UHGV virus genome: UHGV-0028991
Direction: 5' to 3' (one strand)
DNA length: 64,000 bases
Source: a virus
Position numbers and translations under genes: made by a program. Below the pieces are notes generated by a model. The model searched no databases, had not been told where the DNA came from, and saw nothing but the letters and a program-made list of their open reading frames with translations. Positions 913 to 42,883 of the stretch are shown one piece after another. Positions within the stretch are counted from its first letter, which is position 1. Every line of letters begins with the position of its first letter.

Positions 913-1749
913 TTAGAATGTCATTGCCGAAACGGCTGCGTTGACCGCTTTCTCGTTGGTCTTGATATATCTGCTCGTAGTAGAAATAGACGAATGATGC
1001 AGTACATCACGAATAACCGCAACAGGTACACCGTTCTCGGACATAATGGATGCACACGCCGCTCTCAGCGAATGCGCAGAAATCTCAAATGGCAACCCCG
1101 CTTTTCGCCCAACAACCTTCAGCGTCTTGTCGAAATTGGCGTTATTGATTTTGCCGCCCCATGTGGAAGTAAACAAATATTCACCGCCGTCTTTTCTCTT
1201 CGGCAGATATTGTTCAATTGCCACAATATTTGCATCGCTGAAGAACGCAAAGAATTCCTTGCCGCCCTTACCTGTCATAGCAATCTTGTTCGCACCGTCT
1301 TTGCGCATTTGTTCGTATTGCTTAAGAGTGATGCTTGTGAGCTCGTTGAATCGAAGCCCAGTAGTTGCATAGCAGGAAATCAGCGCCTTATCGCGGGCAT
1401 TTGTCGCGGCTTTAATAAGCGCAGACACCATATCTGCACTCATAAATTCCTTCGGCTTAGAATGAATGCTCGGGCGCTTAACATTCGCCATTGGATTCTT
1501 TTCAATCGTCCCGCATTCGCACAGAAACTTGAAATAAGAATTGAGCGCGTTAAGCTTAATATTGATTGTCGCAGAAGAAGCATCGGACATGCTTTCCATC
1601 CATGCGAGAATATCATATTTCTCAACGCGCTCTGCGTCCTTATTTGCAAAAGCAAAGAAATTTGCAATTGCCTCGGCATATCTTGCGATTGTGTTTGCGG
1701 CTTTCTTTTCTGCTCTCAGGCTGATAAGATACTCATTAAACTTCGTCAT
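913..1749 (-). CDS. tyrosine site-specific recombinase (Xer/phage-integrase family), 278 aa
   Basis: C-terminal catalytic region with AHSLRAA (H-x-x-R) and LHHSSISTTSRY (catalytic Tyr); size and layout are XerC/D-like. Confidence 0.8.
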   Translation of the reverse strand: MTKFNEYLISLRAEKKAANTIARYAEAIANFFAFANKDAERVEKYDILAWMESMSDASSATINIKLNALNSYFKFLCECGTIEKNPMANVKRPSIHSKPKEFMSADMVSALIKAATNARDKALISCYATTGLRFNELTSITLKQYEQMRKDGANKIAMTGKGGKEFFAFFSDANIVAIEQYLPKRKDGGEYLFTSTWGGKINNANFDKTLKVVGRKAGLPFEISAHSLRAACASIMSENGVPVAVIRDVLHHSSISTTSRYIKTNEKAVNAAVSAMTF

Positions 1750-2747: not shown

Positions 2748-3113
2748 TTATTTTACTACAATTTCAATAATTTTGTCTCCGCCAAAGTTTTCTGAATCTC
2801 TAATGCCAACCCTATGACCGTCACATGTTTGTCTGAAATCTTCCTCCGTAATGCCAAGCCTTGTCAGCCCGCTCTTCTTGCACAGATAGCCAACAAGCAA
2901 TTGTAGCCTTTGAATGTCTGCATGGCTTTTGTTAAGCTGCCTCTGCAAACCGACCAAATTGCCGTTGATTGCTTCTCTGTATTCCATTGATTTTTTCAGA
3001 CATTGATTTTCTCGCTCGAGGCTTTCATTAAGCTGCGCCTGTGCAATGGCAAATGCAATAAGCTCTTGAGCGGGCAGGCTTGCAATTTTTGCTTTATCTT
3101 CTGTTTTAATCAT
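2748..3113 (-). CDS. hypothetical coiled-coil protein (121 aa)
   Basis: ORF with RBS; no motif. Confidence 0.35.
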   Translation of the reverse strand: MIKTEDKAKIASLPAQELIAFAIAQAQLNESLERENQCLKKSMEYREAINGNLVGLQRQLNKSHADIQRLQLLVGYLCKKSGLTRLGITEEDFRQTCDGHRVGIRDSENFGGDKIIEIVVK

Positions 3114-3118
3114 CTTCT

Positions 3119-3349
3119 TTAATCCTCCTTTCTAACAAGAATATATTTGCCATTGATTACGGCGGGTTTGTCATAACATTTTGTACAATTTTTTATGTAA
3201 CAATCTATGAAAGATACATTAAAATCTGAAAATGGATAAGCATTTGGACAGTTAAGCACACCACCAGGCGCTTTCTCTTTAATGCAATATGGATGGTGCT
3301 TTGCCACCCATTCCCGCCGCGTCATAAATCGCATTCGTTTAATTTTCAT
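3119..3349 (-). CDS. small Cys-rich protein (76 aa)
   Basis: Many Cys and His residues (HHPYC, CPNAY, CYIKNCTKC); possible zinc-binding. Confidence 0.35.
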   Translation of the reverse strand: MKIKRMRFMTRREWVAKHHPYCIKEKAPGGVLNCPNAYPFSDFNVSFIDCYIKNCTKCYDKPAVINGKYILVRKED

Positions 3350-3610: not shown

Positions 3611-3639
3611 ATTATATCATATACAATTCCACTTGTCAA
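3611..3639 (-). promoter_or_regulatory. consensus sigma-70 promoter (TTGACA, 17 nt, TATAAT) on the minus strand
   Basis: Minus-strand reading is TTGACAagtggaattgtatatgaTATAAT, an exact match to both hexamers with a 17-nt spacer. Confidence 0.6.
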
Positions 3640-4440: not shown

Positions 4441-4514
4441 TGGTACTGTAAGATAGTGTCGAACTATCGTCTATCGGTTATAAGCCGATTGCTCTTCCGT
4501 TGAGCTATTACAGC
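4441..4514 (-). tRNA. tRNA with anticodon UAU (Ile-like), CCA encoded
   Basis: Hand-folded cloverleaf: acceptor GCUGUAA/UUACAGU, D-arm GCUC-AACGGAA-GAGC, anticodon arm AUCGG-CUUAUAA-CCGAU, T-arm GAUAG-UUCGACA-CUAUC, discriminator A plus CCA. Confidence 0.7.
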
Positions 4515-4626
4515 ATATCCTGCGGTTTTACCCGCAGAATAATATATCGAAAAAGGAGGAGAAAAATGAATTCTTGTCAAGCCAGCCACTTGACATTATT
4601 TATTATAGCATGGCCAATTTCATTTG

Positions 4627-4962
4627 TCAAGGGTTTTTTGAAAATTTCTTTATATCTTTTTGAGTACAAAATCCATCTGGCGCATCAATGCCAATACTTG
4701 CGCCTGCCATAGAACATCCAAGCAGTGCAGAAATGCATTCATCAATTTTATACACATAAACATTACTTGGATTGTCAATCTGTATATTACCATCTGTGAC
4801 AGAATAAACAGGAATTTGCTTATCTGTGACGCCTTTAATCCTTGCAAGAATAGTTTTAATATGCATGTAGCTTGGGCATATAATTGCGCCATTATTCTTG
4901 ACCGCCTCTTGAATAAGGTTGTCTAAAATATCATCGCAGTAATGTCCTATAAAAAGTCTCAT
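4627..4962 (-). CDS. hypothetical protein (111 aa)
   Basis: ORF in the minus-strand operon upstream of the tRNA. Confidence 0.35.
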   Translation of the reverse strand: MRLFIGHYCDDILDNLIQEAVKNNGAIICPSYMHIKTILARIKGVTDKQIPVYSVTDGNIQIDNPSNVYVYKIDECISALLGCSMAGASIGIDAPDGFCTQKDIKKFSKNP

Positions 4963-8599: not shown

Positions 8600-9180
8600 A
8601 ATTTCCATTTCCGAATTTCAATTTTGATTTTTCATTTTGTATTATAGCATTTTAATTTTGCTTTGTCAATACTATTTTCAAATTTCCAAAAATAATTTTT
8701 GATTTTCTGTTTTCAAAACTCAAATTCTATTTTCTATTTTGTATTTCGGTATTTATATATTATTATTCTGCTATTTGATATTTGATATTAGATAGTTGAT
8801 ATTATATATATTATATTTTAATTATAATATTATAATTATATAATTTAATTTATTATAATAATTATTATATACAATAATAAATAATAAAACTAAATTTATA
8901 ATTTCTTTTCTTTGGTTCTTTCTTTTCTTTTTTTTGTTTTCTCATTTGTAAAATCAAAATCAAAAATCAATTTTCTAATTTTGATGTTGGATACATGCAA
9001 TTAAAATCGTAATAAACCGTATTATTTTTCACTGTATGCATGTTTTATATCAATAGGGTAGTATCTATGTACCTATATTGTTTCATGCGCTTATAGCTTA
9101 AAATAATAGTGTTTATGCATATGCCATATTGTATGTGTATACATATATATGTATTATATGGGGATATTCGTGCGCACGCA
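8600..9180. repeat. AT-rich repeat region with TGATATT-like direct repeats
   Basis: GC is well below 20% here. Repeated elements include tttgatatttgatattagatagttgatatt, ataat/tataat runs and the motif TTCTTTGGTTCTTTCTTT near 8907-8926. Confidence 0.6.
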
Positions 9181-15033: not shown

Positions 15034-15062
15034 ATTATATCACAAATATGCAAACTTGTCAA
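15034..15062 (-). promoter_or_regulatory. consensus sigma-70 promoter (TTGACA, 17 nt, TATAAT) driving the T5orf172 and DUF3310 genes
   Basis: Minus-strand reading TTGACAagtttgcatatttgtgaTATAAT is an exact consensus. Confidence 0.6.
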
Positions 15063-15303: not shown

Positions 15304-17871
15304 GTGCCTCTTGAAAAATTTCATTACATCTATTCAATCGGCACAGACGCATTATATACGCCCGAAGAAAAAGAAGTTCATAAAAAGCTCGTTAAGCTAT
15401 ACAAAATAAGAAAAAGGTGGAATTCCGACACGCAGAAATGGCGAAAAGCGTGTGTAAACCGCGTTATAAAGAAGTACAAGGCAAAATTGACCGAGCTTTT
15501 AGACAGGTCTTTGGAGCAGGACATTCACAGGACGGTTGACCCAAATTGTCTGAAAGACAAATTTGTTATCAATCTATTCGATTCTGAATTGACTCGTGCA
15601 TTGAATATGCCTGATTATCAGCTTAGCGATGAGTTGATAATGGTGAACGTGTATTTCTTCCAAGTGCTGAAGAGCATAATTTTTAATGGCTTTATATTGA
15701 ATGGTGAGAAATATGTATTTTATACGGCGTCGGCAGGGCAGATTCGCACAAAGCGGATGATTGCAATAAAAGAATCCTCTTATAAGAGAATTCAGGGGCG
15801 ATTGTTTTGTGGGCTGACGGTTGACAAGATAAATGTGCTGGGTGGCATCAATTCAAATAAATTTGCTGCTTATGCAGCTCTCACAAATTCTGCCACGGAC
15901 CAATGGGACGGCTTTGATATTCGTCGGGCAATAGTTGTCGATGATTTTGAAACAAAATTTTCAGCGCTTGTTGATTACATCAATTATGAGACATATGAGG
16001 TCAATCGCAAAACAATGGATGTTGACATCCCGTGTACAGATGGTTGGGGTATTGTTGATGGCGAGATGACGAGAATGTGCCGGGCACCATGGATTAAGGG
16101 CTTGCTTACACAGTTTCCTTTGCAACAGTGGCTAAGAGAAGAATGCCCGCATGATAAACGGACTGTCAAAGATGCTTGGGGCAAAGAGCACAATCTTGTC
16201 GAAGAAAACATTAAGGTTATTTTCTGCTTGAGCCAAATGAAGCTGAAAAAGTTCTATTCAAGTTGGGACGAATATTGCGGCGAATTTGAGAAGAACGGAT
16301 GCACAGTCAATTACTGCAACATGGAAGAGGAAAACATAAAGTCCTCTCGAATCAATTATCAGATGCTTCAGCAATTGTCCTCTATTACGCAAACCGAAAT
16401 CGACAGGCTTGTGAGACGGTCAAACGAGGACATTGAGAAAATCGGCGTTGATTATCGCACAACAATGAGGCTGCTTGGTGCAGACGATTGGAACAAGGAC
16501 AAGAGTAGCTTACAGGAAGCGTTGAATATTTATCCAGAATTGTTCAGAGACGAGTATTCAAAAGAAATTCTTCGGCAAACAAAGAAAAGCTTGGTTAAGC
16601 AGGCAAAGGCGGGCAAGGTTAGAGTAAATGGCAAATATTTGTTTGTTGCGCCGAATCCACTTCCGTTCTTGCGTTGGATGACGACGGGCGAGAAAAGCCC
16701 ATATGATGAGTTGGCGGATGGGGATGTGTATACAAATCAATTTTCCACCGATAGCGAATTGATGTTATTGCGGTCGCCGTCTCTTGGAAAAGAATGGGCA
16801 ATTAAGAAAAACAGGCGAAACGAATATTTAGATAAGTGGTTGGGTCAATCAAAATGCATTTACACAAGTAGCTATGACACTGTAAGTAAAATGCTGGCGT
16901 TCGATTGCGACGGTGACAAATTATTAGTAATTAAAGATTCCAACCTACTTAAAGTTGCAAAAAGAACAATGGATGGCGTTGTTCCGCTTTACTACGAAAT
17001 GAAAAAGGCGCAAGGTGGAGAATTAACGCCCGAAACAATATACCGTGGAATGTCGCTTGCTTACACATCGGGCAATATAGGTCCGATAAGCAATTTAATT
17101 ACAATTGTCCATAATAACGATGAGGAAAACAGAGAAGAAGCCGACCTTGCTATCAAATGGCTAACAATGGAAACAAACTTCCGAATTGATGGCAGCAAGA
17201 CACTATTCTTTTTAACACGACCGAATTTTGCCGACAAAATAATCAAGAAACACACAAAATCAAAGTTGCCAAACTTTTTCATTTATGCCAAAGATAAAAT
17301 GTATGACCCGAAACATCCTGAGAAATCACAGGTCGAGCCGCCCAATCAATCTGCAATGAACAGAATTGCGGCGGCTATTGTTCCGAGCAGATTAAAGTAT
17401 AATAAAAATTTAGGGCAACTTGATTATCGTATGCTTATGAATGTCGATGCGGGATTTATGATAAGTGATAATTGCCAAGCAATTAAATCCTACGATTATT
17501 GGCAGATGCGGGTTGGAACAATTGAAGTGCCCGAGAATGTATCTGCGGACGAGGATTTGTATATTTACAGAAAAATTCGCACACAGATACTCAATGAGTG
17601 TAGGTGGGATTTAGATTTCGTTGTAAATTCGCTTGTTGCATACTTATACACTGTTCGTCCGAACAGTCATAAAAAAATGTTGTGGGCATGCTTTGGCGAT
17701 GTGATTGTAAGAAATTTGAAAAATAATACAAAAGACCTTGGGCAGATTTGTCCGATTTGCGGGCGGCGATTCAAAGCAAAAGGCAACAACAAAGACAAGC
17801 AAATTGTGTGTTGTGCCGAGTGTAAAAACAAGTGGGATTCGGCAAGACGACACGACAGGACAGACGAATAA
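15304..17871 (+). CDS. putative YonO-like (RdRP-fold) single-subunit RNA polymerase, 855 aa
   Basis: AFDCDGDKLLVIKD matches the DxDGD catalytic motif of cellular RdRP/QDE-1-fold polymerases and of phage YonO. The protein is large and has a C-terminal Zn-ribbon (CPICG...CAECK). It sits at the head of the late-gene block. Confidence 0.45.
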   Translation: MPLEKFHYIYSIGTDALYTPEEKEVHKKLVKLYKIRKRWNSDTQKWRKACVNRVIKKYKAKLTELLDRSLEQDIHRTVDPNCLKDKFVINLFDSELTRALNMPDYQLSDELIMVNVYFFQVLKSIIFNGFILNGEKYVFYTASAGQIRTKRMIAIKESSYKRIQGRLFCGLTVDKINVLGGINSNKFAAYAALTNSATDQWDGFDIRRAIVVDDFETKFSALVDYINYETYEVNRKTMDVDIPCTDGWGIVDGEMTRMCRAPWIKGLLTQFPLQQWLREECPHDKRTVKDAWGKEHNLVEENIKVIFCLSQMKLKKFYSSWDEYCGEFEKNGCTVNYCNMEEENIKSSRINYQMLQQLSSITQTEIDRLVRRSNEDIEKIGVDYRTTMRLLGADDWNKDKSSLQEALNIYPELFRDEYSKEILRQTKKSLVKQAKAGKVRVNGKYLFVAPNPLPFLRWMTTGEKSPYDELADGDVYTNQFSTDSELMLLRSPSLGKEWAIKKNRRNEYLDKWLGQSKCIYTSSYDTVSKMLAFDCDGDKLLVIKDSNLLKVAKRTMDGVVPLYYEMKKAQGGELTPETIYRGMSLAYTSGNIGPISNLITIVHNNDEENREEADLAIKWLTMETNFRIDGSKTLFFLTRPNFADKIIKKHTKSKLPNFFIYAKDKMYDPKHPEKSQVEPPNQSAMNRIAAAIVPSRLKYNKNLGQLDYRMLMNVDAGFMISDNCQAIKSYDYWQMRVGTIEVPENVSADEDLYIYRKIRTQILNECRWDLDFVVNSLVAYLYTVRPNSHKKMLWACFGDVIVRNLKNNTKDLGQICPICGRRFKAKGNNKDKQIVCCAECKNKWDSARRHDRTDE

Positions 17872-19556: not shown

Positions 19557-20447
19557 GTGCCGACAGCAAAAAAGAAAGCTCCGACCAAAAGCATTAGGAC
19601 GGATAGCAGGAATGTGCGGCTGTGCATTGCCTGTGGGTCAAGAAAGCCAATAAGCGATTTTTACTCAACGACATCCGTTCCCAACATGCAATTTTTTGTG
19701 TGCCGCAGGTGTGGCAAAAGATTACTTAAAGACCACACAGATAAGGTAGAAAAGCCGATGGCAGCACTGTGGCTTGTTTTGGCGCAAATGGGCGTACCGT
19801 TCATTTTAGAGGCGTGGTACGCCGCTTCGGAAATGTATGAAAACGACAAAACGGGTGATTTAATTACATTCTACTTGATTTCGCTTGCTAACTTAAATCG
19901 CGTATATGAGGGCTTTTGGCAATCAGATGCCATGTTGTCCGACATGATAAAGACGGGCGTTGGTGGCGAAGTTAAGGATATTGACCGCCATCTCGCAGAC
20001 GCAAACAAGTATAGAGCGCGTTGGGGCGATTATACAGCCGATGATTGGGATTGGCTTGAAAGAGAATATTTAGACTATACGCGCGACCTCGAAGCCATAT
20101 CTGTTTCGGCGGAAAAGGCATATAGGTCTTTATGCAAATGCAATTTGCGCTTTAAGAAAGAAAGCGAGGCAGGCGAAGAAACAAAATCTACAACTGATGA
20201 AATCCTGAAATGGATGAAATTGTTGCGCATAGATGATTTCAGAGACAATACAAAATCGGACGAAGATAGATACATAGACCACTTGGCATGGAAATTTGAG
20301 AATACTGAGCCTGCTGAATTGACGGATGAGGAGCGGTATAAGGATGTTAAGGGCTATGAGAAAATATATAATGATTGGATGCGGTCAATGCAGAATATGA
20401 TTGCGGGGACGAAGAGCTACCCCAATATTCCTAAGGAGCAGTTGTAA
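19557..20447 (+). CDS. putative terminase small subunit or DNA-binding packaging protein (296 aa)
   Basis: GTG start after GGAGGTG RBS. N-terminal Zn-ribbon (CIACG...CRRCG). Its stop overlaps the start of the large terminase exon 1, which is the usual small-terminase position. Confidence 0.4.
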   Translation: MPTAKKKAPTKSIRTDSRNVRLCIACGSRKPISDFYSTTSVPNMQFFVCRRCGKRLLKDHTDKVEKPMAALWLVLAQMGVPFILEAWYAASEMYENDKTGDLITFYLISLANLNRVYEGFWQSDAMLSDMIKTGVGGEVKDIDRHLADANKYRARWGDYTADDWDWLEREYLDYTRDLEAISVSAEKAYRSLCKCNLRFKKESEAGEETKSTTDEILKWMKLLRIDDFRDNTKSDEDRYIDHLAWKFENTEPAELTDEERYKDVKGYEKIYNDWMRSMQNMIAGTKSYPNIPKEQL

Positions 20448-21331
20448 TGCCGACCGCAAGAGAAAACGAACAATTCCGCAAGTCCGAAAATGTCAAAAAG
20501 TGGATAACTTATTATCGCAGGAATTGGGACTTATTTGCTGAAGAAGTTCTTGGCATTAAGCTATATCCTGTGCAGAAGCTGAAATTGCACATGATAGGTG
20601 TTGCCGACGAATATTGGGACTTTTCGTCTCGTTCAACGGCGAAGTCTTTTATTGTTGGTGTTGCCGCATTTTGTGCAATGAGTTTATATCCGCATTCAGA
20701 AATTGTTGTTACATCATCTTCTATCCCGCAGTCTGCAAGACTTGTAAGAGATAAGATGATAAAAGAAATCATTAAGAAATATTCGCCATATTTGAAGTAT
20801 TTGTATGAGAAGGGCTATTTGACAGTTAAAATGCTTGATGAGGGCGTTTTCGTCTTAACGAACACATTAAATGAATCAACGACAACGGTCGCTGTGTGTT
20901 CTGAAAATGCTCGTGGTATGCGTTCCACATTTACGATATATGAAGAGACGCGATTGCTGAAGAAGTCAATTCTCGACTCTGTATTTGAGCCGATGGGGCA
21001 CGAGCGTCCTGCGCCGTTTACACTTGACCCTAAGTATAAAACAGACAGGTGGATAAAGGCGGCAAAATCTTGCTATATTTCATCTACTCGGTATGAGTGG
21101 GAATGGTTTATCAGAGAATACAGAAAATGCGTTGAGGGCTATTATACATCAAAGCACGAGAAGTACATTCCTATGGCAGAGGACATTTATACTGCAATTC
21201 AAGAAGGAAGCCGAACATGGGCGGACTATCGAAAGGCAAAGAAGAAAATGTCCAAAGCGGATTTGAAAAGGTTCGCATTAAACATATTGAATTGCTGGAA
21301 TACCCTTAGAGTTTTATCAGCTACAACATAA
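20447..21331 (+). CDS. terminase large subunit, exon 1 (ATPase domain, 294 aa)
   Basis: Deviant Walker A FSSRSTAKSF (PBSX-type GRGSGKS analogue), Walker B TFTIYEE. The ORF ends with an in-frame stop exactly where intron-like sequence begins. Confidence 0.6.
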   Translation: MPTARENEQFRKSENVKKWITYYRRNWDLFAEEVLGIKLYPVQKLKLHMIGVADEYWDFSSRSTAKSFIVGVAAFCAMSLYPHSEIVVTSSSIPQSARLVRDKMIKEIIKKYSPYLKYLYEKGYLTVKMLDEGVFVLTNTLNESTTTVAVCSENARGMRSTFTIYEETRLLKKSILDSVFEPMGHERPAPFTLDPKYKTDRWIKAAKSCYISSTRYEWEWFIREYRKCVEGYYTSKHEKYIPMAEDIYTAIQEGSRTWADYRKAKKKMSKADLKRFALNILNCWNTLRVLSATT

Positions 21332-22547
21332 GCATGAAATAAGGCTAAGTGTGATATGCGAGAAAATGATAGAAATTGGGCAATCAGCAGCGAAGCCTCG
21401 AATAGAGGAACGTTCAACGACTATCCCGCAAGGGAGTACACAACAAGCGATTGGTTGTGGAAGTGGTATGCCTTTGCACAAAAGCAAAGTGAAGATATAG
21501 TCTTATCTGCGCGGAAACGCGCAGTCTTTCAAAAAAATGAGAGAAACGAGGAGTAGCGACCTATGCTTAAAAGAGTAAATGGGGGACAGCAAGTTGCAAA
21601 TTGTTTTTGTTTGTCTGCAAACAAACAAATTACCCCATTTGTTCTTGAATAATAATCTTTGTTGCAGGAAGGATTTTATAGCATGAATATTTTTGAGGTT
21701 AATGATAAAAATAAATTCTCTTTTAGTTGTATTTATTTATGGCAAAATCTAATAAATGGGAAGGTTTATGTTGGGCAGACGGTGGATTTTTATGCCCGCA
21801 TGAAACAATATTTACGCGAAGACACAAGTAGGCGTATCTGCATGGCTATTAAAAAGTATGGATTTGATAACTTTAGTGTTGAAGTGTTGGAAAGAGACGT
21901 GTCGCACCAAAATTTAACACAACGCGAGCAGTATTGGATAGATTTTTATGATAGTGCCAACGAAGACGTCGGATACAACATATGTCCGGTAGCGGAAAGC
22001 ACAAGAGGATATCACCACAGAGAAGAAGACAAGAAGAGAATGAGCGAAATAGCCAAAAAACGTTTCAAAGAACACCCAGAACAAATAAAACGCGGGAAAG
22101 AGAATCACATGTTCGGCAAAAAACATTCCGAAGAGACAAAAAAGAAAATAAGCCAAAGTATAATGGGCAACCAAAATGTAAAAGGCAAAACATGGAAGCT
22201 TTCGGAAGAAATATGTCGTCGTAGGTCGGAGAGGATGAAAGGTAAGAGGAATGGAGTGGGGCACAAATGTCCAGAAAGCGTAAAAGAGCATCTTAGAAGA
22301 TATAATAAAAATCGAATCTGGACAGAGGAGATGCGAGAGCAATCGCGGATTGCACATCTTAACATTGGCGGGAAGAAACTGATGTGTGTCGAAACGGGAG
22401 TCACTTATGAATCCGTGGCTGAAGCGGGTCGTGCCTTGAACAAGGACCCGTCCTCAATTTCTAAGTGTTGTCGCGGGCAACAACGAATCGCATATGGATT
22501 TCACTGGCAATATATATAATTAACCTCAAAAAAAATAGTTTAAAAAA
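21332..22547 (+). mobile_element. group I intron in the large terminase gene carrying a GIY-YIG homing endonuclease gene
   Basis: R-like element GTTCAACGACTATCC at about 21412-21426 and S-like element GAAGATATAGTCTTA at about 21491-21505 (the two strands of P7). P/Q-like AAATTGGGCAATCAGCAGCG at about 21381-21400. The homing endonuclease ORF lies downstream of S; boundaries are approximate. Confidence 0.6.
21683..22519 (+). CDS. GIY-YIG homing endonuclease (intron-encoded)
   Basis: CIYLWQNLINGKVYVGQTVDFYARMKQY is a GIY-YIG motif. NUMOD3-like repeats GKKHSEETKKKIS and HKCPESVKEHL. C-terminal NUMOD1/HTH-like VAEAGRALNKDPSSISKCC. Confidence 0.75.
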   Translation: MNIFEVNDKNKFSFSCIYLWQNLINGKVYVGQTVDFYARMKQYLREDTSRRICMAIKKYGFDNFSVEVLERDVSHQNLTQREQYWIDFYDSANEDVGYNICPVAESTRGYHHREEDKKRMSEIAKKRFKEHPEQIKRGKENHMFGKKHSEETKKKISQSIMGNQNVKGKTWKLSEEICRRRSERMKGKRNGVGHKCPESVKEHLRRYNKNRIWTEEMREQSRIAHLNIGGKKLMCVETGVTYESVAEAGRALNKDPSSISKCCRGQQRIAYGFHWQYI

Positions 22548-36723: not shown

Positions 36724-37152
36724 ATGGCGAATAAAAACACGAGCTGGAATATTGGCGTAGGTATTGAGATAAAGACAAGCACAAGCGAAATTCAAAAGAA
36801 ATTGAATGAAGCGGCGAAAAATGTCAATATCAATATCAAGGCAAAAGGGGCTAAGGAAGCATCTGACGGAATAAGCAATCTGTCAAAGAACATGAACGAA
36901 GCCTCGTCCAGCGCGAAGAATTTTGAATTAACATATCAAGCGGCAAACATGATTATGGAGAAGAGCATAGAAATTATTAGGTCTATGGTCTCTGAAGTCT
37001 ATACTATGAATGCCGCGCAGGTCGAATTAGCAAAGGTCACAGATTTGTCCGGCGAATCAATGGACGAATATGTGAGCAAGTTGACCGACATGGGAGCAGA
37101 AGTTGCTAAGACGGGTAAACTATGGACGGGAGCCCGTGTGATGGGATGGTAA
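36724..37152 (+). CDS. tail tape-measure protein, exon 1
   Basis: Sequence typical of the N-terminus of TP901-type tape-measure proteins (LAKVTDLSGESMDEYVSKLTDMGAEVAKTG). An in-frame stop is followed by intron-like sequence. Confidence 0.6.
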   Translation: MANKNTSWNIGVGIEIKTSTSEIQKKLNEAAKNVNINIKAKGAKEASDGISNLSKNMNEASSSAKNFELTYQAANMIMEKSIEIIRSMVSEVYTMNAAQVELAKVTDLSGESMDEYVSKLTDMGAEVAKTGKLWTGARVMGW

Positions 37153-37443
37153 ACCAGCACAGAGAATTGTTCAAAACCCAGTAAAACCTAAAGCCTGTTT
37201 AACTACAACATGGGGATGAAATAAGCCCAAGTGTGAATGTGGGAAACTGTTAAAAATAAGCAGGATGGCATATGGTCGAAAGACCTAAGTGCAATTTATC
37301 CCGAATATTATACATTATTTGGGACAAACAATGGTAGATTGGGCGCGAAGTCCCGAACAGGGATGTGTCAAGAGACTCTATAAGTTCGACCCCTCCAAAT
37401 TAAACAGGGTGAAGAAATAGTCCAGAATATTTTGAAAAAGGTA

Positions 37444-37472
37444 TTGACAATCTAAAAGTTATGTGTTATAAT
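37444..37472 (+). promoter_or_regulatory. perfect consensus sigma-70 promoter inside intron 1 (TTGACA, 17 nt, TATAAT)
   Basis: TTGACAatctaaaagttatgtgtTATAAT lies about 30 nt upstream of the RBS and ATG of the intron ORF. Confidence 0.6.
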
Positions 37473-37501
37473 GGCATCAACAAAGAAAGGTGGGCTTGAT
37501 T

Positions 37502-37735
37502 ATGTTGTTAATTGCAGTTCCTTTGATGATGCTTTATTGCGTCTGTTATGGCATTGCTTGTTTCTTCAGGCATGTTGTTTTGGGCATCCCTTTTGATAAG
37601 GACGTTGCCAAGAAAAACAATCCCGAGCAATATAAAAAATGGGAAGAAGAAGATAGGCAGGCTGCAGAGCAGTACAGAAAAGAAGAAAAAGAGCATAACG
37701 ATTGGGGATTTATTGATTACTCCAAGAAAGATTGA
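37502..37735 (+). CDS. intron-encoded small membrane protein (77 aa), not a homing endonuclease
   Basis: AAGGTGGG RBS 8 nt upstream of the ATG. MLLIAVPLMMLYCVCYGIACFF transmembrane helix followed by a K/E-rich cytoplasmic tail. No nuclease motif. Confidence 0.5.
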   Translation: MLLIAVPLMMLYCVCYGIACFFRHVVLGIPFDKDVAKKNNPEQYKKWEEEDRQAAEQYRKEEKEHNDWGFIDYSKKD

Positions 37736-37748
37736 ATAAAAGTCCCAG

Positions 37749-37955
37749 ATGGTGGAAAGCGCTGCCCAATTTGCGAAAGCTGGATTTAATGAAACCGATG
37801 CTGCGCAATTAGCGAAAGTTTCCTCCATGTACCAAAACATTGCCGATGAGCAACTTTCGGCGGGCGAAGCATCTGAGTTTATTATTTCTCAGATGAAAGC
37901 ATTTAATATTACTGCTGAGGAAAGCTTACATATTGCTGATGCGGTTTACTTTTAA
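37749..37955 (+). CDS. tail tape-measure protein, exon 2
   Basis: MVESAAQFAKAGFNETDAAQLAKVSSMYQNIADEQLSAGEASEFIISQMKAFNITAEESLHIADAVYF resembles the tape-measure core domain; stop codon at the exon/intron junction. Confidence 0.55.
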   Translation: MVESAAQFAKAGFNETDAAQLAKVSSMYQNIADEQLSAGEASEFIISQMKAFNITAEESLHIADAVYF

Positions 37956-42001: not shown

Positions 42002-42883
42002 ATGGCAAACATGAACGCAATTGATGTTTCGTTGTATCAGACTATTTATGACGCGAACGCACTGAAGCAGGACGGCATTAAGCTGTGCATGATTAAGGCT
42101 TCGCAGGGCAGATATTTGAACGGCTATGGTAGCTTCTTCAAAGACAGAAAAATGGACGAGCACGCACAGAAATGCATTAACGCCCATTTGCCAATTGGCT
42201 TCTATCATTTTCTTTGCGCATTTAATGTACAGGAAGCCAAGCAGGAAGCCAAGAAGTTTTTGAAAGCAATTAAGCCGTATGCGCAGTATGTGTCTTATGT
42301 GGCTCTCGACTGCGAGAATTATAACAACACGGCGTTGTTGTGTCAGAATAGAACGCAGTTGACCGAGTCTTGTAACGCATTTATGAAAATTTGCGAAGAC
42401 GAGGGCTATCTGCCCATGCTGTATACAAACCCCGACCATCTGAGAAACAAGCTTTATGCCGAGCGCATTAAGTACCCGCTGTGGGTAGCACTGTACGGTG
42501 AGGCTAAGCCGCAGTATGACGCAATGATTATGTGGCAGAAGGGTCCTGTTAGTCCGAACGGTGTGACGGCTAATACTGACGGAAACATCTGCTATATTGC
42601 GGATGCCGCACTCGCTGTTGTAGAACTTGCAGAAAAGGGATTTATTGCATCTCCGACATATTGGATTAACCAACTTGATAATGTTAAGTGGTTGCCTGAA
42701 TTGTTTGTTCAGGTAAACGGCGTGTTTAATTATCGCATTGGTCGTTCTAAGACGGTCGATGAAGCATGCAACTATATGAAAGAGCAGGGCGCAATGAACA
42801 GCCCTGAATACTGGATTGCACAGTCCAAAAAGGTCAAGCACCTTGCCGATTTGCTGAAGAACTTTGGTGGCGGCAGAAAATAA
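42002..42883 (+). CDS. GH25 muramidase (lysin) with two C-terminal cell-wall-binding-type repeats (293 aa)
   Basis: IDVSLYQ...KASQG...GFYHF is the GH25 (Cpl-1-type) catalytic signature. C-terminal approximate repeats ASPTYWINQLDNVKWLPELF and MNSPEYWIAQSKKVKHLADLL. Confidence 0.7.
   Translation: MANMNAIDVSLYQTIYDANALKQDGIKLCMIKASQGRYLNGYGSFFKDRKMDEHAQKCINAHLPIGFYHFLCAFNVQEAKQEAKKFLKAIKPYAQYVSYVALDCENYNNTALLCQNRTQLTESCNAFMKICEDEGYLPMLYTNPDHLRNKLYAERIKYPLWVALYGEAKPQYDAMIMWQKGPVSPNGVTANTDGNICYIADAALAVVELAEKGFIASPTYWINQLDNVKWLPELFVQVNGVFNYRIGRSKTVDEACNYMKEQGAMNSPEYWIAQSKKVKHLADLLKNFGGGRK

Follow-up and report, generated by a model that had tools for sequence, protein, structure and literature searches.

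The 64,000-nucleotide stretch of virus genome UHGV-0028991 analyzed here (the window) contains a gene for a tape-measure protein (TMP) that is split by an intervening sequence of 626 nt, termed intron 1, on the plus strand (positions 37117 to 37742). Our analysis indicates that this element is probably a group I-type intron which, in the slot 3' of the ribozyme where related introns hold endonuclease genes, carries a self-contained expression cassette with a host-type promoter for a membrane-anchored protein of 77 amino acids (aa). All conclusions presented here are based on comparative sequence analysis.

The cassette within intron 1

Intron 1 is organized in the order ribozyme core, expression cassette and a 7-nt tail that ends in the terminal G (37742). 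The cassette begins with a promoter of the sigma-70/sigma-A type (37444 to 37472), composed of a -35 hexamer TTGACA (37444–37449), a 17-nt spacer and a -10 hexamer TATAAT (37467–37472). The spacer ends with TGT and provides the TG of an extended -10 element at 37464–37465. Transcription is predicted to start near A37479/A37480. A Shine-Dalgarno (SD) sequence, AAAGGTGGG (37486–37494), is located 7 nt upstream of the ATG of an open reading frame (ORF) for 77 aa (37502–37735 including the stop codon, ATG at 37502, TGA at 37733–37735), the stop of which lies 7 nt before the 3' splice site. Use of an alternative GTG at 37490 would yield 81 aa; as this GTG sits within the SD sequence, the ATG is the likely start. 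In a consensus scan, the promoter was the sole site matching all 12 hexamer positions between 30000 and 45000. The initial annotation of this stretch had described a TTGACA-17-TATAAT promoter followed by a ribosome-binding site and a 77-aa ORF with an N-terminal membrane helix and a Lys/Glu-rich tail. All of these elements are present, the promoter in addition with the extended -10 TG and conserved beyond chance (see below), and hydropathy analysis agrees: residues 1 to 22 are uncharged with a Kyte-Doolittle 19-residue mean of 2.26, and the 55-residue Lys/Glu-rich tail contains 12 K/R and 14 D/E. A mechanism as in T4, in which the SD sequence would be masked in the pre-mRNA and the excised intron and free in a short transcript, was considered and rejected, since folding shows no clear switch; the probability of the SD sequence being unpaired is 0.34–0.36 in the short transcript vs. 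0.54 in the long RNAs, a trend that is if anything opposite to masking.

Comparison among copies from related phages established the predicted boundaries of intron 1 as well as a set of conserved RNA helices. The internal guide sequence (37127–37137) consists of GGGA (37128–37131) for P10 and GCCCGT (37132–37137) for P1. In P1, the end of exon 1, ACGGGU (37111–37116), pairs with GCCCGU (37132–37137), placing a U37116·G37132 pair at the cleavage site, and in P10 the GGGA pairs with UCCC, the first four nucleotides of exon 2. In a diverged clade represented by contig L020, both P1 and P10 are retained with other sequences (CGGGG/CCCCG and UCUGA/UCAGG). The terminal G37742 is invariant across copies, in contrast to variable bases nearby. 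Splice sites after GCU or at G37748 were ruled out, as there is no guide pairing there and position 37748 is polymorphic (G/A).

The ribozyme core (37117–37443) contains a series of helices with compensatory changes. An 8-bp helix formed by 37194–37201 and 37257–37264 reads CCUGUUUA/UAAGCAGG in the window, CCUAUUCA/UGAAUAGG in L020 and CUCUAU/AUAGAG in L012, a hairpin with a UAUGG/CCUAAG GAAA-receptor motif (37271–37289) shows GGUC/GACC vs. GGUG/CACC, and a P6-like hairpin (37351–37363) has U-A vs. C-G between clades. Covariation is also evident in the R element GUCAAGAGACUC with the 5' strand of P7 (37367–37378) and in the S element GAAGAAATAGTC (S core GAAGAAAUAGUC) with the 3' strand of P7 (37411–37422), P7 being GACU/AGUC vs. 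GGCC/GGUC between clades, while in P8 (37389–37410) pairing is kept through changes. P9 is a hairpin of 8 bp (37426–37445), AAUAUUUU-GAAA-AAGGUAUU in the window and AUUUACAU-GAAA-GUGUAAAU in the L020 type, where nearly every pair differs and pairing is nevertheless retained; the hairpin ends within the -35 hexamer, of which it includes the first two T. Close copies differ at about 10 sites in the 327 nt of the core, and identity between the core of the window and that of the L020 intron amounts to about 75%. A further hairpin (37299–37324) lies within a 29-nt indel (37296–37324). This segment, which forms a UCCC...GGGA hairpin, is missing in the near-identical copies L001, L002, L008 and L014, and an unrelated longer hairpin takes its place in L020 and L024; it is an optional peripheral ribozyme element. 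In L024, GC-rich unrelated sequence (1–140) joins the intron in the middle of the guide region, which is most likely an assembly chimera.

On the protein level, exon 1 (36724–37116, 131 codons in the ORF list, with a weak Pfam TMP_N match) ends with ...AKTG, and exon 2, which starts with SQMVESAAQFAKAGF... and contains a PhageMin_Tail domain, extends from 37743 to approximately 37949, where intron 2 follows. The spliced product, ...VAKTG|SQMVESAAQFAKAGF..., aligns without gaps to two intronless TMPs, those of Enterocloster phage PMBT24 (...VARTADEMVEAATEF..., VARTADEMVE) and of contig MT838326 (...VSRTTAEMVSSASEF...). The predicted ligated junction is AKTG|SQMVE in the protein and ...GACGGGT|TCCCAGATGG... 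in the RNA, also given as GCTAAGACGGGT|TCCCAGATGGTG.

Conservation of the promoter and the reading frame

A phylogenetic footprint was derived from six lineages, i.e., the window and five diverged lineages that had been fetched through the protein and not through the promoter. None of the 12 hexamer columns is variable, as compared with 15 of the 17 spacer columns. The two spacer columns without variation hold the TG of the extended -10 element, and the spacing is always 17. Both hexamers are also kept, without the TG, in lineages L030, L033 and L036. An SD sequence occurs in every lineage compared, with AGGAGG at the same place in the diverged ones. In IMG/VR, a scan for the S element plus promoter and a scan for the C-terminal motif of the protein only both yielded L030, L033 and L035; L036 was added by a metagenome scan. 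Promoter hexamers, spacing and SD sequence are therefore shown, as far as comparison goes, to be selectively maintained across diverged phage lineages.

With regard to the promoter set of the phage, nine sites with at most one mismatch are found in the 64-kb window vs. 0.78 expected, a number reached in none of 100 shuffles, and six of the nine are perfect (12/12). The five other perfect promoters are all located on the minus strand (1780–1808, 3611–3639, 4602–4630, 8641–8669 and 15034–15062), have the form TTGACAA-N16-TATAAT with TGn in four of the five, and precede early-type genes, namely a tyrosine-recombinase family gene, a RecJ-like gene, T5orf172, a tRNA (4444–4514) and small ORFs. Judged by this gene content, they look like the early promoter set of the phage. 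The intron promoter is the only plus-strand site with at most one mismatch inside the plus-strand late gene block. A promoter-like site matching at 11 of 12 positions and including TG (CTGACA-17-TATAAT, 42318–42346) is present on the minus strand, antisense within the gene for a GH25 muramidase (42002–42883). None of eight endonuclease-like ORFs in neighboring introns of the phage group is preceded by a promoter (up to three mismatches, sensible position); these ORFs directly follow P9. Since the endonuclease genes of neighboring introns lack a promoter, its presence appears specific to the membrane-protein cargo.

The comparison shows the 77-aa ORF to be, by its substitution pattern, a real coding gene under purifying selection. 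Among 15 close copies, 23 of the 30 variable ORF positions fall at codon position 3, and pairwise ratios of non-synonymous to synonymous differences (pN/pS) range from 0 to 0.17 with pS up to 0.35. Nine of these copies (L003–L011) were fetched by exact protein identity, such that only synonymous differences were possible; as they are uninformative by construction, the estimate of selection rests on L001, L002, L013–L015 and L021–L023. The last three, fetched via exon 1 and thus independently of the ORF, all hold the 77-aa ORF and differ with pS of 0.37–0.40 and pN of 0.026–0.031 (pN/pS about 0.08), 16–17 of the 20–22 differences being located at codon position 3. The ORF region varies more than the core, in a synonymous, coding-type pattern. 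The 90% protein cluster comprises 173 distinct sequences, and no truncated form is among the 15 members listed, which have 77 aa or, where the start was called further upstream, 87 aa. Thirteen cluster members that were compared exhibit only conservative substitutions, and their last 17 residues are invariant.

A search with the exon 1 protein returned 97 clusters and no intron-less allele. Intron 1 is assigned to all of them because all that cover the end of exon 1 carry the first 11 intron-encoded residues. The cassette was present in every copy examined, without any sporadic distribution.

The putative membrane protein and its possible role

An exhaustive HMMER search of 1.84 billion representatives retrieved only the query's own cluster as a family. 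A match to P0004 (1583 aa, E = 4e-7) was dismissed as spurious, as this is a repeat-rich surface protein in which one 40-residue stretch was matched three times. Diverged homologues, for which the initial annotation had proposed to search, do occur in the same slot of the same intron in related phages. In L020 (P0101), exon 1 is 45% identical and interrupted at the same codon, and P9 is followed by TTGACA-17-TATAAT with TGn, an AGGAGG SD sequence and an 82-aa ORF, the C-terminus of which reads EFGIIEYWEDK vs. DWGFIDYSKKD in the window. A profile search added six more proteins of 59–82 aa, and the same arrangement was present in four of four contigs inspected. These homologues, 18–28% identical, reside in the same intron slot of L020 and L024–L027, and further diverged ones with the same C-terminal motif in that of L030, L033, L035 and L036. 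According to these searches, the protein family is confined to this intron.

The C-terminal motif, ...KEEKEHNDWGFIDYSKKD in the window, follows the pattern K-x-E-K-x(2-4)-[FW]-G-[IFT]-I-[DE]-Y and is nearly invariant across the family; in five L020-type loci, five of the six nucleotide changes within it are synonymous. The N-terminal uncharged stretch is poorly conserved and varies from 22 to 53 residues, corresponding to one or two spans. Since the residues after the last span are K/R-rich, the tail is predicted by the positive-inside rule to be cytoplasmic. AlphaFold, run with a 10-sequence alignment, proposes a membrane helix at residues 2–27 and a long charged helix at 41–67 with a mean predicted local distance difference test (pLDDT) score of 67.6 and low confidence for the C-terminal motif. 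Searches of Pfam and PHROGs gave no nuclease domain match for the 77-aa protein, one third of which is membrane helix, in agreement with the earlier claim that the cargo is not a homing endonuclease. Likewise, Pfam, PHROGs, PADLOC and NCBIfam yielded no meaningful match to superinfection exclusion families (T4 Imm, Sie2009, Ltp), and library searches none to holin families.

Several points weigh against the interpretation of the element as a group I-type intron with a cassette for a membrane-anchored protein. The Rfam model Intron_gpI (RF00028) scores intron 1 with 22.5 bits and the L020 intron with 27.3 bits at a gathering threshold of 50, and P3–P5 did not converge, either with RNAalifold or manually, so that only clearly covarying helices were counted; for these two reasons, intron 1 is called group I-type on comparative grounds. 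A U·G wobble at the 5' cleavage site is near-universal among group I introns. In most sister lineages (L020 4558–4600, L025 230–262, L030, L033, L035, L036), however, exon 1 ends with ACGGGG, the guide is GGCCCCGG and the cleavage-site pair is G-C in place of the U·G of the window type, a double substitution by which pairing is preserved. As the canonical pair is replaced, efficient splicing in these lineages is doubtful. In addition, the consensus scan revealed no terminator-like site 3' of the 77-aa ORF, recognition of the promoter by the host is deduced from its consensus (among cultured phages, the nearest relatives have Enterocloster, Thomasclavelia and Bacillus as hosts), the matches in Pfam, PHROGs, PADLOC and NCBIfam are all sub-threshold and typical of hydrophobic or charged peptides, and the AlphaFold model is too simple and uncertain for fold comparison. 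Finally, the Gram-positive exclusion proteins known so far operate at the outside of the membrane, while the conserved motif is predicted here to be cytoplasmic.

The sub-threshold Rfam score, the lack of the canonical U·G pair in most sister lineages and an in-frame ATG at 37749 would fit a situation in which the TMP is made as separate polypeptides, with an ordinary moron in the intergenic region. The term moron was reportedly applied by Juhala et al. in 2000 to additional units of promoter, gene and terminator within the late operons of lambdoid phages. We regard separate polypeptides as very improbable: the break coincides with a codon boundary inside a domain that intronless homologues have in one piece, no SD sequence precedes 37749, and the region has P1 and P10, a terminal G, R and S elements as well as multiple covarying helices. 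Moreover, two further introns recognized by Rfam (34.6 and 51.5 bits) reside in the same gene, and some relatives without them have a continuous frame. The tape-measure intron proposed in the initial annotation is thus upheld by P1/P10, the terminal G, the covarying helices and the gapless exon junction, and falls short with respect to the Rfam score of 22.5 bits. It could also be argued from the short ORF, the absence of a known family and the low-complexity Lys/Glu-rich tail that there is no functional gene at all and that promoter and ORF are chance features, a structural P9 extension or the remnant of a decayed endonuclease gene. This is already contradicted by the comparative data and deserves hardly any credence, given the codon-position pattern with a pN/pS of about 0.08, the 18–28% identical homologues with an invariant C-terminal motif, the retention of hexamers, spacing and SD sequence while the surroundings diverge, and an ORF that is more variable than the core in a synonymous pattern. 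Conservation of the ORF in relatives with the same intron, on which the initial annotation had made its proposal depend, is of the coding type and not that of a structural P9 extension.

For a group I-type intron with such a cassette, the following course of expression can be envisaged. YonO transcribes the structural and lysis genes of SPbeta as a single operon (PMC5467207); for this reason, the TMP pre-mRNA would be made late by the phage polymerase. Host RNA polymerase, on the other hand, would read the 77-aa gene separately and in the class of early genes. Transcripts starting at about 37479 would lack P1–P9, be unable to splice and serve as mRNA for the 77-aa protein, and they probably run on into exon 2, as there is no terminator after the ORF. 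The ORF would also be carried by the late pre-mRNA and the excised intron. The product may be located in the cytoplasmic membrane via a variable anchor of one or two helices and could expose the conserved peptide at its C-terminus ([FW]G[IFT]I[DE]Y...) to the cytoplasm, presumably for binding to a conserved partner. Among the functions ranked, the most likely role is that the protein modifies the infected cell early on. It might exclude superinfecting phages as T4 Imm does, or take part in host takeover as SPO1 gp56 does; taken jointly, we give these two possibilities a slightly better than even chance.

Other roles appear less plausible. The initial annotation had placed the gene in the context of a prophage and lysogenic conversion, i.e., as a moron of a temperate phage that is expressed from the repressed prophage and protects or alters the lysogen. 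Relatives of SPbeta are described as temperate (PMC8270828), a tyrosine-recombinase family protein is encoded in the window (913–1749, minus strand), and in a lysogen, a host-type promoter of consensus sequence would be active unless subject to repression. The recombinase gene, however, is an early-type gene situated beside a DnaE-type polymerase in a long run of small early genes and has the same kind of promoter as these, no terminator closes the cassette, no moron-like presence/absence polymorphism exists in the 97 exon-1 clusters, and scans of 185,579 species-representative bacterial genomes with the 77-aa protein and with the tail-tube protein gave no match. The lysogenic framing has thus gained no supporting evidence and is unlikely; because the five other perfect promoters drive early-type genes, immediate expression by the host polymerase during infection fits at least as well. 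We consider it quite unlikely that the protein controls the timing of lysis as a holin or antiholin that is translated late, with the pre-mRNA or the excised intron as template. In size, in its membrane helices and in the charge of its C-terminus, the protein does fit the generic description of holins, and no holin was recognized beside the GH25 muramidase gene just after the TMP gene, but the promoter is of the early class and premature holin expression would be harmful. Furthermore, there is no holin family match, and the membrane region with its one or two spans is the least conserved part while the cytoplasmic motif is nearly invariant, which is the opposite of what would be expected. Type I toxins are typically small hydrophobic peptides, and toxins of this kind occur in SPbeta. 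The resemblance of the 77-aa protein to them, together with the fixation of an intron without an endonuclease in 97 of 97 exon-1 clusters, would suit a selfish cargo, namely a small membrane toxin or addiction-like module penalizing loss of the intron. Against this stands that the conserved part is the soluble tail and not the hydrophobic segment and that a strong constitutive promoter without a visible antidote is hard to square with a viable phage. No antitoxin RNA signal and no promoter-like site were found on the minus strand of 37444–37760 by the consensus scan, which a weak promoter could escape. Such a module is therefore improbable to a high degree.

Returning to the reading as a carrier intron with an early-acting cargo, no intron-less allele was seen and intron 1 lacks an endonuclease, which suggests that it is inherited vertically and probably kept as the carrier of a useful gene and not through homing. 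It is conceivable, and we put this forward only tentatively, that a homing element has turned into a fixed vertical carrier, that the gene it houses is read by the host polymerase and yields a membrane-tethered product acting early, for instance in the exclusion of competing phages, and that the benefit provided by this cargo, and not homing, keeps the intron in place within an essential tail gene.

Known systems and the phage setting

In two reviews (PMC3984707; PMC3073962) and in the paper on a database of introns published in 2025 (PMC11835236), the ORFs of bacterial and phage group I introns are exclusively mobility genes for endonucleases or transposases. The database restricts its screen for endonuclease domains to ORFs with a minimum of 120 aa. 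Small cargo genes would be missed by annotation because of this size limit. A literature search that covered mostly titles and abstracts found no title or abstract describing such cargo in a phage group I intron. The view that the arrangement has not been described before is hence in line with the reviews and the database paper.

The introns in td, nrdB and sunY (nrdD) of phage T4, which encode I-TevI, I-TevII and I-TevIII, share with intron 1 a protein gene in the peripheral or 3' part and a promoter of its own within the intron; expression of the T4 intron ORFs from own promoters inside the intron, independent of the interrupted gene, was reportedly found by Gott et al. in 1988. In sunY, just as in intron 1, the ORF is placed beyond the catalytic core on its 3' side, and P10 has to bring the 3' splice site back. 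The T4 ORFs, however, are homing endonucleases that mobilize the intron and have phage middle or late promoters, whereas intron 1 encodes a 77-aa membrane protein without a nuclease motif behind a perfect host-type promoter of the early class. The general architecture of intron ORFs in phage group I introns has been reviewed (PMC3984707; PMC3073962). The IStron CdISt1 of Clostridioides difficile, a bacterial group I intron, likewise has ORFs other than endonuclease genes at its 3' end and has retained splicing (PMC3984707). There, the IS605-family transposase cargo serves its own mobility, while the 77-aa cargo is without mobility features and conserved like an accessory gene.

With morons, the cassette has in common that it possesses its own promoter (12/12 with TG, apparently maintained by selection). 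It differs from them in that it resides inside an intron within a gene and not between genes, no terminator was found and it is fixed among close relatives. T4 Imm, a protein of 83 aa, blocks DNA injection, SPO1 gp56 is an inhibitor of cell division and phi29 p16.7 is a membrane anchor for replication. The 77-aa protein resembles these in size, N-terminal anchor, charged remainder and the strong host-type or early promoters; as there is no sequence similarity, the resemblance concerns a possible mode of action and not membership. From holins it is set apart by an uncharged N-terminal stretch of 22–53 residues and a topology that is not constant within the family. In fungal mitochondria, rps3 is housed in a group I intron of the large-subunit rRNA gene, and there, too, the intron is the residence of a gene that is useful to the genome and not to the intron. 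However, rps3 is an organellar housekeeping gene without its own promoter, and no bacterial or phage equivalent is given in the reviews (PMC3984707; PMC3073962).

Bacterial and phage group I introns are usually regarded as selfish elements with passengers that serve only the mobility of the intron. If the slot instead houses a conserved accessory gene under a separate promoter, this would imply that an intron can be a safe insertion site, at which an essential and packed late operon can take up new genes undisturbed, and it suggests retention of the intron through the value of its cargo. This would be a concrete case of intron-host mutualism, a question left open in PMC3073962. The protein family is recurrent in human-gut phages (173 variants in one cluster) and thus a candidate for a new phage-host or phage-phage interaction factor. 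If the proposal holds true and the sister introns with the G-C pair do splice, the textbook U·G rule of group I catalysis would be relaxed.

Downstream of exon 2, the TMP gene continues with intron 2 (37950 to about 38349, Rfam group I with 34.6 bits), exon 3 (to about 38466), intron 3 (38467 to about 38783, Rfam group I with 51.5 bits) and exon 4 (to 41731); neither of the two introns contains an ORF. Among relatives from gut metagenomes, introns 2 and 3 are missing in L005–L007, and endonuclease-like ORFs of 265–385 aa are found there in L001, L002, L008, L010 and L021. These copies make the tape-measure gene a hotspot at which introns are gained and lost, intron 1 being fixed.

By its gene content, the source phage is an SPbeta-like gut phage. 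The plus strand from about 15.3 to 59 kb forms a structural block with YomU, YomW and YomX family proteins, a portal protein and, downstream of the TMP gene, the GH25 muramidase gene. The block is headed by the gene for a YonO homologue of 855 aa (15304–17871), which is 39% identical over 99% to YonO of SPbeta/phi3T and has neither a Pfam family nor, by sequence, a solved structure. A blastn search against INPHARED returned no close phage, just short matches to intron cores.

Other introns and insertions occur in the window and its relatives. In the window itself, a group I intron (21255–21524, 77 bits) splits a gene of the head/packaging region (20447–21331, resuming after 22519) and is followed by an ORF for a 286-aa GIY-YIG-type homing endonuclease (21659–22519, PHROG 7e-41), upstream of which there is no consensus promoter. 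A related intron core is located at another position of the TMP gene in L012 (MT835469.1, 2990–4590), a gut phage of 176 kb, and there the core is followed on its 3' side by an endonuclease-like, zinc-finger-rich ORF of 379 aa, the architecture that would be expected before the cargo replaced an endonuclease. In L007 (478–3053) and L008 (559–3137), the tail-tube (YomU-like) gene is split by an insertion coding for a 357-aa protein of the DUF7487/MTES_1575 type. Finally, exon 2 of L002 (about 2980–3250) is strongly diverged from 37750–37950 of the window, while exon 1 and intron 1 are about 90–95% identical, which points to a recombination boundary at or near the 3' end of intron 1.

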